A DNA stretch of 64,000 nt from a virus (lineage: Duplodnaviria; Caudoviricetes): the IMG/VR virus record IMGVR_UViG_3300021514_000002, positions 1 to 64,000 of that record, one strand, 5' to 3'. Position 1 is the first letter of the stretch, and each line of letters opens with the position of its first letter. Shown one piece after another: positions 10,831-25,121 of the stretch. Below the pieces are notes generated by a model, which saw only the letters and a program-made list of their open reading frames with translations, did not search any database and was not told the DNA's origin. Made by a program: the position numbers and the translations under genes.

Positions 10831-10859
10831 AAAATTGTAGAAATTGGTATGACAGTACG

Positions 10860-10945
10860 TCCATTGCTCTACCACTGAGCTACTTCTCCGAAAAAGGATT
10901 TGGTGGAGAAGGCAGGGATCGAACCTGCGACCGATGGTTTAAAAG
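10860..10945 (-). tRNA. Circularly permuted tRNA-Lys(TTT): 3' half (10901-10945) precedes 5' half (10860-10889)
   Basis: Halves reassemble into a 75-nt Lys cloverleaf with 7-bp GGAGAAG/CTTCTCC acceptor and ATGG/CCAT anticodon stem. Confidence 0.8.
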
Positions 10946-16907: not shown

Positions 16908-16990
16908 TGGTACGCCCGGTGGGAGTCGAACCCACAAAAGTCTACGGTCTAAACGTAGTAGCTGTGCCAATTTACATTAACCACAGGCGC
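16908..16990 (-). tRNA. tRNA-Leu(TAG), short variable region, enlarged D region
   Basis: CTACG-TTTAGAC-CGTAG, CCA. Confidence 0.8.
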
Positions 16991-21310: not shown

Positions 21311-21949
21311 TTAAAATATTATTTTTCTACCCTTAGTCCATCCTTCTAACAGGTAACATTCCATTTCCTCTTTTTTAATCTTGATTGATTTCTTTTTAGA
21401 TAGTGAATAGATCCAACAAGTCCCATACTGTGAATTCTTTTTACCGATTTGATGGTTGTTGGTTTTATGCGTTGCTCGCATTTTCTTTTTTGCTTTACCT
21501 GAGTGTTTTCTCCCTGTCCAGTCTGGCGGTTGTACAACGTTCCGTCCATTCGCATAAGCTTTTTTTCCTGCTGCGCTTATATTCTTGGATTTATTTTCTA
21601 ACCATATCGGATCATTTTTTCTTAACCATTTTAATTTTTCAACGGCGGATTTATTATAACCACCCACCCCACCTATTGTTATATTCATGCACAGTGAGTC
21701 ATGTAGTAAATCTTCATTTATGATATCAGATTCCTTTTCTTTAAGTGTTTTCCTGTCAGGTAAAAATTCTAATATTTCGGTTTTGTGATTTTCTTTCCCA
21801 TGTTTATTCACAGAATACCATAAACGTTTCCCAGATCCAATATACCCGTCGTCTAAGTCATTAGTTGAATGCATTCCGATATAATATTTGTTGTTTATTA
21901 TATTGGTCGTTTTATAGATATAATGATATTTCTTTTCTTTTCTTGGCAT
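21311..21949 (-). mobile_element. GIY-YIG homing endonuclease with NUMOD3-like region
   Basis: YIYKTTN..NNKYYIG; YIGSG; GRKHS..AKKKM. Confidence 0.85.
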
Positions 21950-22995: not shown

Positions 22996-23109
22996 TGGTG
23001 CGCCAAGGGGGACTCGAACCCTATCTTACCGTCCAAGATGATCAAGTCATATTCAGTAAGCCATCTCCCACATTCGTTAGTGGAGTTCTGCCAATTAAAC
23101 TACCGGCGC
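22996..23109 (-). ncRNA. Expanded tRNA-like RNA with 8-nt anticodon loop
   Basis: GCGCCGG/TTGGCGC-A-CCA, normal D arm, TCCAC-TAACGAAT-GTGGG, about 45-nt variable insert. Confidence 0.6.
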
Positions 23110-23474: not shown

Positions 23475-23552
23475 TGGTCGGGAATGTAGGATTCGAACCT
23501 ACGGCCCCTCCGCCCCAAACGGAGTGCTCTGACCAGACTGAGCTAATTCCCG
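23475..23552 (-). tRNA. tRNA-Pro(TGG)
   Basis: CTCCG-TTTGGGG-CGGAG, C1-G72, CCA. Confidence 0.9.
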
Positions 23553-23594
23553 AAATATTATTACTAAAAATTATACATACTTTTCCTATCTTTT

Positions 23595-23758
23595 CAGGGA
23601 CCGGTTTTACGGTTCAATTACCCTCTTGGCTGGCACCATTCCGACACTACCGGTAGGTGAGTTCCGTTATATGGTTCGGGGGGAATTTCAACCCCTGCGA
23701 ATGATCATATAACCCGATTTTCTTGAAACTAACCTGTATCTAAGTGTTCTTCAGGTTA
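23595..23758 (-). ncRNA. Structured 5' leader of the tRNA array
   Basis: TAACCTG/CAGGTTA, GTTATATG/CATATAAC and GGGG/CCCC stems. Confidence 0.4.
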
Positions 23759-23814
23759 ATCTTGCATTTCTAACCACTTTTCACAACATATACTTGTTTT
23801 TCATGGTTTTTAAA

Positions 23815-23843
23815 ATTTTAACACTTTCTAAAACATTTGTCAA
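23815..23843 (-). promoter_or_regulatory. sigma70-like promoter at the head of the tRNA array
   Basis: TTGACA-N17-TAAAAT. Confidence 0.75.
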
Positions 23844-23885
23844 GCATTTTTTTAACTTTTTTAAAACTTTTTACTTCTTATAACG

Positions 23886-23922
23886 AAAAAAGGCTGAATC
23901 CTTTCGGGTTCAGCCTTTTGTG
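23886..23922 (-). terminator. Intrinsic terminator (attenuator hairpin)
   Basis: GGCTGAACCC-GAAA-GGATTCAGCC followed by T6. Confidence 0.85.
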
Positions 23923-23943
23923 TTTTCTTTTTGGTATCTACTT

Positions 23944-24090
23944 TTACATTATCTTAGTAGATCCCGTCACAAAAGGCTGCGTGTGTTCATAGCTGCGCGG
24001 ATCGAGTTGAAACGAGCCTAGACGCAATGATCCCATTCCACATAATATGGATTGTTGGTGCCATTGATGTTGTATAGATGAATGTCTCAT
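23944..24090 (-). CDS. Putative attenuator leader peptide (48 aa)
   Basis: AAGGT SD; MRHSSIQHQWHQQSILCGMGSLRLGSFQLDPRSYEHTQPFVTGSTKIM; codons 38-41 are the exact complement of the terminator 5' arm. Confidence 0.75.
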   Translation of the reverse strand: MRHSSIQHQWHQQSILCGMGSLRLGSFQLDPRSYEHTQPFVTGSTKIM

Positions 24091-24131
24091 TACTTTACCT
24101 TTTATGTGCCTTGCGGCGTTAATTTCAATGT

Positions 24132-24160
24132 ATCTTACTACTATATATAACCGATGTCAA
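24132..24160 (-). promoter_or_regulatory. sigma70-like promoter for the leader peptide
   Basis: TTGACA-N17-TAAGAT. Confidence 0.65.
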
Positions 24161-24199: not shown

Positions 24200-24228
24200 A
24201 CTATATACCAACCTGAAATGGATGTCAA
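24200..24228 (-). promoter_or_regulatory. Second tandem sigma70-like promoter
   Basis: TTGACA-N17-TATAGT. Confidence 0.65.
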
Positions 24229-25121
24229 CACTTTTCTAAGAAATTTATTATAATTTTCCTATATTGTTCCTGACAATCGCCATGGTGGATAAACTTGGCG
24301 TACTGTGTCATTAGCGATATGAATTCTTCCTTGGTGTCTGGGTGTTGCATTTTGTCACCATATACTAACATAGTTTTTGGTGCGTATACAATAGGCGTAT
24401 CTTCATTATTCATATCTTTACTACCAACAAGAATAGTATCACCTAATCCCCACAGACTGCAATAGACAGTAACTTCTTTGTTGTTAATAGTTAACTGTCC
24501 TACATGCATAAGGTCACCCATAGTTCCATGAGGTTCACCACCCTGTTTATATTTGGTGTGCTTGTCGGATTGTAATATTGCAAGTATTAATGCTGGTACG
24601 ACAATCCAATTTGCATGTGCATCTATCACAGCGGCTGTTATCGCATCAGTTACACCTCGTGTGTCTTCAAATCCTTTTACATCAATATTTATTTCTGTAG
24701 CGTACTGGCCAATAAGGTGTAAGAATACGGCTACTATTTCTATTTCTATTTCAGTGGAACACGCATAATTTATTTCGCATTCAAGATCTAATCCAGATTG
24801 CGTTTCAAGTTCTTTATCGCTTGGTCTACATGGATAACCACATTGAAGTGGTCTTGTATCAACTTCCACTTCATATTCAAGTCCACTAGATTTAATGGTT
24901 GGAATTTCTTCGCTCGTGATTGGCTGTATACCAATGATATTACCAAGGGGAAAACGGCTTAGTATACGTCGTACTATAACAGCAGCATTGTCCATGACGT
25001 TTTTATTTTCTTTGTTTTTATCGGTAAAATGATATTGAAGTTGATTTTTTAAAATAGTTTCTTTGATATTATTATGGTCATTTATATCTTCCATTAATAC
25101 ATCAAGTGTTTCTTTGTACAT
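24225..25121 (-). CDS. Divergent, shortened T4 gp23/gp24-like capsid protein paralog
   Basis: IIGIQPI, RPL..GY..., GLDLE.EI....STEIEIEI, ANWIVV, ILVGSK, IVYAP, SLMTQYA echo gp23 motifs in order. Confidence 0.6.
   Translation of the reverse strand: MYKETLDVLMEDINDHNNIKETILKNQLQYHFTDKNKENKNVMDNAAVIVRRILSRFPLGNIIGIQPITSEEIPTIKSSGLEYEVEVDTRPLQCGYPCRPSDKELETQSGLDLECEINYACSTEIEIEIVAVFLHLIGQYATEINIDVKGFEDTRGVTDAITAAVIDAHANWIVVPALILAILQSDKHTKYKQGGEPHGTMGDLMHVGQLTINNKEVTVYCSLWGLGDTILVGSKDMNNEDTPIVYAPKTMLVYGDKMQHPDTKEEFISLMTQYAKFIHHGDCQEQYRKIIINFLEKC

Follow-up and report, generated by a model that had tools for sequence, protein, structure and literature searches.

A candidate leader-peptide attenuator with codons matching the tRNA genes behind it in a giant phage

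Introduction

Why phages carry tRNA genes and how these genes are expressed are unsettled questions, for which codon compensation, host tRNA loss and escape from anticodon nucleases have been proposed. Leader-peptide attenuation, for its part, is known from biosynthetic genes, ahead of which it senses between one and three amino acids. In the window analyzed here (64,000 nucleotides, corresponding to bases 1-64000 of a complete IMG/VR phage genome of 363,531 bp), a promoter, a short ORF and an intrinsic terminator stand on the minus strand ahead of a long tRNA array. This locus raises the question of whether translation of the ORF controls transcription of the tRNA genes. The reading favored here, with a probability of about 0.8, is that the element would be a ribosome-mediated (leader-peptide) transcription attenuator of the trp/thr/ilv type tuning the transcription of phage tRNAs. 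It builds on the observed anatomy, conservation, covariation and codon/tRNA match of the locus. An attenuator had already been proposed in an earlier note made from the window alone, and this reading came through every in silico test applied, namely conservation, compensatory changes, the occurrence of a second unit and the distribution of Ile codons.

Genome setting and tRNA arrays

DNA of this phage occurs in hydrothermal-vent, cold-seep and marine-sediment metagenomes, and no RNA run was found to contain it. The phage is a distant relative of the GAP32/Rak2-like jumbo phages. A paralogue of the gp23 capsid gene (24225-25121), located directly upstream of the unit studied and sharing only 25-30% identity with the capsid genes of these phages, is followed by the leader region, for which a blastn search of 800 bp against deposited phages returned no match. 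Over the whole genome, ARAGORN identifies 45 tRNAs and a tmRNA, nearly all of them on the minus strand and gathered in two blocks:

2172-23552, minus strand: tRNA array 1, with 28 tRNAs found by ARAGORN, at least two non-canonical tRNAs and interspersed protein genes
54795-72020, minus strand: tRNA array 2, with Thr, Val, Ala, Lys, Asn and Ile(GAU)

Array 1 spans about 21 kb, with further promoter-like sites inside, and its isotypes according to ARAGORN are Met (CAU, four copies), Arg, Gly, Trp, Cys, Leu, Gln, Ser, Asp, Phe, His, Glu, Tyr and Pro. Two tRNAs of this array were missed by the program. The first is an intron-containing tRNA-Arg(ACG) at 22999-23109, decoding CGT and CGC, and the second, at 16911-16990, carries a UAG anticodon loop and covers CTA. 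As array 1 includes no explicit tRNA-Ile, ATA could be decoded there only if a lysidine-type tRNA-Ile is present among the four CAU tRNAs. One CAU tRNA would thus be the ATA decoder of the phage's own array 1, and relatives display an explicit tRNA-Ile(UAU) inside this array. A gene for the lysidine synthetase TilS was sought in the phage and not found.

Organization of the leader-1 unit

The elements of the first unit, called leader 1, follow one another on the minus strand from the end of the gp23-paralogue gene to the first tRNA:

24276-24247 and 24228-24200, minus strand: two tandem sigma-70-like promoters, each with 11 of 12 consensus matches, overlapping the end of the gp23-paralogue gene
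24160-24132, minus strand: leader-1 promoter TTGACA-17-TAAGAT, kept in L002, L005, L044 and L047
24108-24117, minus strand: small 5' hairpin GCC-GCAA-GGC at the start of the leader-1 transcript, present in the RNAalifold consensus of seven sequences with one compensatory change
24097-24108, minus strand: region 1, the SD-containing segment CACATAAAAGGT, complementary to region 2 and proposed as anti-antiterminator
24090-23944, minus strand: leader-1 ORF, 48 codons and a stop, with homologous peptides P0001-P0008 and only synonymous changes in its core
23983-24087, minus strand: sensing segment, codons 2-36, every codon of which is readable by array-1 tRNAs
23999-24033, minus strand: in-ORF hairpin GGATC...GATCC of the RNAalifold consensus, which may serve as an RNA polymerase pause hairpin
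23979-23968, minus strand: region 2, the antiterminator strand CAGCCTTTTGTG, codons 38-41, an exact 12-nt complement of region 3
23922-23911, minus strand: region 3, CACAAAAGGCTG, made of the terminator 5' arm and 3 nt upstream that pair only in the antiterminator
23919-23888, minus strand: hairpin of the intrinsic terminator (regions 3:4), with a CGAAAG loop and a T6 tract ending at 23886
23843-23815, minus strand: promoter P2, TTGACA-17-TAAAAT with a TG element, 3' of the terminator; a TTGACA promoter occupies the same place in L002, L005, L044, L046 and L047
23575-23763, minus strand: conserved structured RNA between P2 and the first tRNA (RNAalifold, seven homologs)

The promoter, the SD, the 48-codon ORF and the GAAA-loop terminator with its T6 tract that had been described in the earlier note are all in place, and codons 38-41 are, as it had also claimed, a perfect 12-nt complement of the terminator 5' arm. 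Its caveat about a promoter that could bypass control is likewise justified, since the 23843-23815 promoter is present and conserved in relatives.

The SD (AAAGG) lies 8-9 nt ahead of the ATG at 24090. The terminator hairpin reaches -17.6 kcal/mol with RNAfold, and compensatory changes affect its inner stem among homologs. Regions 1 and 2 form a helix of 11 pairs in the RNAalifold consensus of seven homologs, a helix that is also present in the minimum free energy fold of the full leader. Among all terminators of the genome that are preceded by a short ORF with a complement, leader 1 displays the strongest upstream complement (-20.4 kcal/mol). A promoter equivalent to the tandem sites further upstream is visible at homologous loci too. 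As for the structured RNA that precedes the first tRNA, 27 of its 42 pairs show compensatory changes, with a covariation term of -9.1 in RNAalifold, and it matches no family of Rfam.

Codon content of leader 1

Codons 1-36 of leader 1 encode 15 amino acids, and Ala, Asn, Thr, Val and Lys are all absent. These 15 had been equated in the earlier note with the amino acids served by array 1. The equation stands for 14 of them, for which ARAGORN finds tRNAs in 2172-23552, but Ile, encoded by ATA, has no explicit tRNA there. Similarly, the absence of A, N, T, V and K from both array 1 and codons 1-36 was verified, but the phage does supply these tRNAs, in array 2 (54795-72020).

The codons readable by array 1 represent 62.5% of the codons of the phage, so that 35 consecutive ones are expected with a probability of about 7e-8. 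In the six frames of the 363-kb genome, the longest ATG-started run of array-1-readable codons is precisely that of leader 1, with 35 codons, the next one reaching 25. Moreover, these 35 sensing codons sample 22 of the 24 tRNA species of array 1 (P of about 0.001 given the alphabet).

Leader 1 in related phages

Further copies of leader 1 were recovered by means of the neighboring gene, a degenerate DNA pattern and peptide searches. Six additional DNA copies, from G001, G002 and metagenome contigs, and eight database peptides were obtained in this way. On the metagenome contigs, the neighboring gp23 paralogue is only 58% identical. The ORF and its region 2 occur in all copies, together with the tandem promoters and the terminator, and most copies include the downstream promoter as well. 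The consensus fold of the family consists of the 5' hairpin, the 11-pair helix between regions 1 and 2, two in-ORF hairpins and the terminator.

Over seven homologs, 96% of the cells keep the antiterminator pairing 2:3, and both partners have changed in two of its pairs: A-U became G-C in L046, and U-A became C-G in L005. As it involves a base located beyond the terminator stem, the double change of L005 is explained only by the antiterminator. Among 500 shuffles, 5 equaled this result, and a partner slid along the sequence was 33-52% paired with no double change.

The reading frame and the start of leader 1 are kept in the seven DNA copies and the eight database peptides. No amino-acid change is seen in the peptide core, LCGMGSLRLG...DPRSYE, and all DNA substitutions within it are synonymous, which indicates that the ORF is translated. 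This amino-acid conservation is far stricter than a simple sampler of codons needs, and the peptide or an overlapping RNA structure may have an extra role.

In the sensing codons of 11 homologs, A, N, T, V and K amount to 5.9% (10.7% at variable positions), to be compared with 32% in the proteome and 26% in the leader-1 tails. These exceptional codons are concentrated in positions 2-5 and in the position that immediately precedes region 2. Leader 1 of G001 includes two Ala codons and an ATT without matching tRNA in its own array 1; this array carries a tRNA-Thr(GGU), yet no Thr codon appears in the sensing part. The exact 15-amino-acid mirror claimed in the earlier note is therefore a true feature of leader 1 in this phage but an extreme of the family, as relatives carry a small number of A/N/T/V/K codons.

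The hairpin could also be regarded as the terminator of the upstream unit carrying the gp23 paralogue, with the ORF and its 12-nt complement arising by chance. Indeed, the unit follows a protein gene (24225-25121), and the hairpin scores as a plus-strand terminator too. Nevertheless, three promoters stand between the end of this gene and the hairpin, the codon run has a chance probability of only about 7e-8, and the same design recurs at array 2. Above all, the ORF, its frame and the complement are kept in distant relatives with compensatory changes, which contradicts this explanation and makes it barely credible.

A second leader ahead of array 2

A unit of the same design was found ahead of the other tRNA block:

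genome 72896-72660 (L003 8896-8660), minus strand: leader-2 unit, 48 kb upstream of leader 1 and outside the window

It includes a TTGACA-17-TATAGT promoter, an SD, an ORF of 33 codons and a terminator with a GCGAAAG loop. The alphabet of codons 3-20 is limited to V, T, I, K, N and A, which correspond to the six isotypes of array 2. No longer run of this alphabet exists in the six frames of the genome, where these 18 codons tie for first place. From codon 2 to codon 20, array-2 tRNAs can read 18 of 19 codons, all but the Phe of codon 2, and the 18 codons touch 10 of the 11 array-2 anticodons. Codons 23-26 (GGGGTTTTG) pair with the terminator 5' arm. No promoter-like site was seen between the leader-2 terminator and the next gene. 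This first gene encodes an RNA ligase (PF09414, 35 bits for a cut-off of 27) and is directly followed by tRNA-Lys(UUU).

Ten further copies of leader 2 were reached via the ligase gene. The order of residues differs from one copy to another, and nevertheless the six-letter alphabet accounts for all but 13 of the 227 sensing residues, whereas 97 of the 132 tail residues do not belong to it. Among the single-base non-synonymous neighbors of the sensing codons, only 38% stay in the alphabet, and the substitutions, at least 34 in number, led to only 8 outside-alphabet states (binomial P = 5e-6). An A-rich RNA was considered as the cause of this alphabet and rejected, as the next frame is unrestricted by eye and 73% of the tail residues lie outside the set.

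The 2:3 pairing is found in all 11 copies of leader 2, where region 2 tracks its own terminator with the pairs TGGGG/CCCCA, GTCGGG/CCCGAC, GTCAGG/CCTGAC and AGAGG/CCTCT. The copy of L041, of the GTCGGG/CCCGAC type, forms 13 perfect pairs. This covariation was assessed by duplex folding of each sequence, because MAFFT misaligns the terminator 5' arms, and it gave on average -16.2 kcal/mol for cognate duplexes versus -12.4 kcal/mol for non-cognate ones. The terminators themselves range from -12.5 to -18.9 kcal/mol. The leader-2 copies also retain an in-ORF hairpin, in which one compensatory change is seen, and the invariant segment TCAAAACC can pair with region 2, a pairing only 1-2 sd better than that of shuffles.

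The earlier note had suggested comparing leader codons and array content across related phages. In this comparison, restricted alphabets are kept, and L043 provides a single in-step gain, its array 2 including a tRNA-Phe and the sensing part of its leader 2 a Phe codon. On the other side are the mismatches of G001 and that of L041, whose array 2 includes a tRNA-Tyr unsampled by its leader 2.

Relatives of the RNA ligase found in IMG/VR with 44-53% identity have another upstream gene and no leader, and L040, whose ligase is 65% identical, displays no leader 2 either. The leader-2 family thus seems to be confined to a narrower clade. A scan of the genome for a terminator with an upstream complement and a short ORF yielded only the two leaders as clean cases, and revealed no leader unit before tRNA-Arg(CCU) or the two CUA tRNAs. 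The same scan across the loci of all retrieved relatives found only members of the two leader families.

With the exception of the Phe at codon 2 of leader 2, both leaders confine their unserved codons to region 2 onward. This is a prediction of the attenuator model, in which a stall there would no longer favor readthrough. They also divide the Ile codons. In the sensing part of leader 1, Ile is encoded by ATA, with a single ATT among seven copies (codon 2 of L005), and in that of leader 2 by ATT or ATC, never by ATA. Over the genome, Ile usage is 54% for ATT, 30% for ATA and 16% for ATC. This split parallels the tRNAs supplied, that is, a tRNA-Ile(UAU) or a CAU tRNA in array 1 and a tRNA-Ile(GAU) in array 2, so that the match concerns codons and tRNAs rather than amino acids or peptide chemistry.

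Alternative functions of the leaders

Both ORFs could encode ordinary micropeptides of early genes, each equipped with its own promoter and terminator, the restricted alphabets reflecting peptide function and the position ahead of the arrays being incidental. The strict amino-acid conservation of the leader-1 core, changed only synonymously, is typical of a functional peptide, and the promoter downstream of the terminator fits a self-contained mini-gene. Such micropeptides, however, leave unexplained the covariation of codons 38-41 (leader 1) and 23-26 (leader 2) with the terminator 5' arm, as well as the reshuffling of residues by which leader 2 nevertheless stays in six amino acids. Neither the choice of ATA in one leader and ATT/ATC in the other nor the existence of two complementary alphabets, each matching the array behind it, is expected from peptide function, and this explanation appears quite improbable.

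Alternatively, decoding speed could be sensed by the leaders with a main output located elsewhere, either the short terminated RNA, released as a trans-acting sRNA, or, for leader 2, translation of the ligase through a CCCC...GGGG hairpin masking its SD. At the leader-2 loci, a conserved hairpin after the T tract pairs with the SD of the ligase (AAGGGG), and region 2 can also pair with the GCCCC segment of this hairpin; at array 1, P2 makes readthrough less necessary. A precedent comes from Sinorhizobium, where two reports describe trans functions for terminated trp leader RNAs and peptides (PMC7968998, PMC7298713). On the other hand, the terminator is the specific competitor of the 2:3 pairing and covaries with it, which points to the control of termination, and no target is known for a trans-acting RNA. 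Such an output, rather unlikely as the main one, could coexist with attenuation.

Proposed mechanism

Attenuation of tRNA transcription, the reading retained here, can be laid out from the predicted folds. The full-length leader-1 RNA folds into 1:2 and 3:4. For a ribosome positioned on codon 10 or codon 30, the remaining RNA adopts the 2:3 antiterminator at the expense of the terminator, which is formed instead when the ribosome occupies codon 36.

Transcripts from the 24160 promoter, and perhaps also from the two upstream promoters, would carry the 48-codon ORF. If codons 2-36 are decoded fast, the ribosome would cross region 2 and reach the stop codon; region 2 would then be barred from region 3, the 3:4 hairpin would form and transcription would end at the T tract. 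Should a charged tRNA needed for any of codons 2-36 be in short supply, the ribosome would stall there and leave region 2 free to form the 12-bp 2:3 pairing, allowing readthrough into the array. In the case of no translation, region 1, the SD segment, would pair with region 2 and the terminator would form.

The stop codon of leader 1 falls within the loop of 45 nt that separates regions 2 and 3. From there, a ribosome that has finished translation would prevent the 2:3 pairing, by an argument that is both steric and kinetic, as region 2 ends 21 nt upstream and stays physically uncovered. The strong and conserved P2 promoter (23843-23815) implies that the attenuator would only add to a basal level of array-1 transcription and would not be its sole control.

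In the same way, leader 2 would sense V/T/I/K/N/A codons and gate the RNA ligase and then the Lys/Ala/Ile/Thr/Asn/Val array. Slow decoding of the codons of a block thus probably leads to more of its tRNAs and of the putative tRNA-repair ligase. The two leaders would together exert a negative feedback on tRNA supply, in which a shortage raises the transcription of the matching tRNAs. Possible triggers include a mismatch between host tRNAs and phage codons, a loss of host tRNAs in infection and an anticodon nuclease. The presence of the ligase and tRNA-Lys at the head of the second operon fits the idea of a nuclease, which may be the trigger.

Significance

In a wider perspective, giant phages would exert a closed-loop control of decoding, with leaders that sample nearly all tRNA species of their blocks and the depletion of any of these triggering replacement, together with repair by the putative ligase in the second unit. 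Host anticodon nucleases, a decay of host tRNAs induced by the phage or a codon-usage mismatch could bring about such a depletion. This proposal is regarded as fairly probable. Full-text literature searches returned no description of tRNA genes controlled by a leader peptide, either for phages or for other organisms. If confirmed, the present elements would be the first class of attenuators to sense the very molecule that they regulate, and also the first pan-tRNA sensor.

A demand sensor on tRNA genes would show that tRNA supply is a regulated quantity for the phage, and the codon list of each leader would state which decoding steps the phage monitors. A textbook mechanism would thereby be extended to 6 to 15 amino acids, to tRNA genes and to a virus. 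The RNA ligase that comes first in the second operon would link sensing to repair. From a practical point of view, such leaders could serve as compact and portable reporters of decoding speed at many codons at once, and as marks of tRNA-operon heads in uncultured phage genomes.

Comparison with known systems

The closest analogues are the multivalent leaders of enterobacteria, namely those of thr (Thr and Ile), ilvGMEDA (Ile, Leu and Val) and ilvBN (Val and Leu). Like them, the phage leaders consist of a promoter-proximal short ORF with regulatory codons placed before region 2 and an intrinsic terminator, would sense more than one amino acid, and offer predicted 1:2/3:4 and 2:3 pairings that would be mutually exclusive. 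The thr and ilv leaders, however, sense two or three amino acids through runs of repeated codons and control bacterial biosynthetic enzymes, whereas the phage leaders sample 6 and 15 amino acids, with nearly each tRNA species represented once or a few times. Moreover, these leaders belong to a virus, and the products that would be regulated are the tRNAs themselves together with an RNA ligase. The curated leader families of Rfam all remained below threshold, the best one being Thr_leader (RF00506) with 19.1 bits against a threshold of 55 (E = 0.46), and this match covers only the generic terminator part.

In the pheST attenuator of E. coli, the leader peptide senses the supply of charged tRNA-Phe and controls the phenylalanyl-tRNA synthetase. 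As proposed for the phage, a component of the translation apparatus is placed under a leader-peptide attenuator; in pheST, a single amino acid and a synthetase are concerned, instead of tRNA genes, and no sequence relation was found between both systems.

T-box riboswitches bind uncharged tRNA directly and do not need translation. They share with the phage elements, as interpreted here, a leader RNA that reads tRNA status, a terminator/antiterminator switch and translation-related genes, but differ by the conserved and translated ORF found in the phage leader. The T-box covariance model gave no match at E <=10 in 23540-24130 or at E <=1 in 1-27000.

Phage answers to tRNA damage provide the last comparison. 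T4 uses Pnk and Rnl1 to repair tRNA-Lys cut by PrrC. The tRNA-Lys of T5 neutralises PARIS (PMC11464382). In these phages, as in the present one with its putative repair ligase, replacement tRNAs, an RNA ligase or both are supplied by the phage. To our knowledge, the tRNA answers of T4 and T5 are not under demand-sensing control. Unlike in T4 and T5, a candidate sensor stands here upstream of the ligase and of the tRNAs, and it constitutes the new element.

Structured RNAs behind the two leaders

A conserved structured RNA separates P2, the promoter at 23843-23815 on the minus strand downstream of the leader-1 terminator, from the leading tRNA of array 1. It would be the first product of transcription from P2.

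Window 23575-23763, minus strand: structured RNA of about 180 nt (RNAalifold consensus)
Homologs at loci of related phage contigs: L002 5372-5580; L005 1025-1235; L036 10235-10447; L044 5377-5585; L046 1028-1237; L047 1067-1276

In the RNAalifold consensus, 27 of the 42 pairs display compensatory changes, with a covariation term of -9.1, and an Rfam search with this RNA returned no match.

Behind leader 2, the second attenuator-like unit located ahead of the RNA ligase gene and tRNA array 2, a hairpin directly follows the T tract.

L003 8640-8672 (genome 72640-72672), minus strand: GCCCC...AAGGGG hairpin

This hairpin is predicted to sequester the RNA ligase SD, and its GCCCC segment is a predicted alternative partner for leader-2 region 2, the antiterminator strand inside the leader ORF. 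Together, these two pairings suggest a layer of translational control at leader 2. Most related loci retain the hairpin, the L037 version being GCCCT...GGGGG.

Overlooked tRNAs and protein genes in and near array 1

Two tRNAs of array 1 are missed by a default ARAGORN run.

Window 22999-23109, minus strand: tRNA-Arg(ACG) with a 36-nt insertion 3' of the anticodon
Window 16911-16990, minus strand: tRNA with anticodon loop UAG and an unusual D arm (Rfam, 36 bits)

They would decode the leader-1 codons CGT/CGC and CTA, respectively.

Two protein genes are also found, one upstream of leader 1 and one inside the array.

Window 24225-25121, minus strand: major capsid protein paralogue, 298 aa (Pfam Gp23, 42 bits)
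Window 21311-21949, minus strand: homing-endonuclease gene (PHROG 314, E = 2e-33)

The capsid paralogue lies directly upstream of leader 1, distant from the structural genes, and holds the same position upstream of the leader in related contigs. The endonuclease gene is flanked by tRNA-Phe and tRNA-His of array 1.

Other translation-related elements

Further elements are located outside the window.

Genome 233835-234219: tmRNA
Genome 249447-249519: lone tRNA-Arg(CCU)
Genome 252271-252344 and 252952-253023: two tRNAs with a CUA anticodon, predicted to read amber codons

In the related phage G001, a CUA tRNA is located within array 1. Genes for an RF-1-like protein, a CCA-adding enzyme, PTH2, and ClpS are present in related contigs.

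A tRNA-like element also lies within the span of array 1.

Window 10858-10936, minus strand: tRNA-like element, weak Rfam YrlA match (36.9 bits, below the cut-off of 69)

In this element, the T arm and 3' acceptor end precede the 5' acceptor and D arm. Were it a functional tRNA-Lys, array 1 would gain Lys, an amino acid that the sensing codons of leader 1 do not sample.
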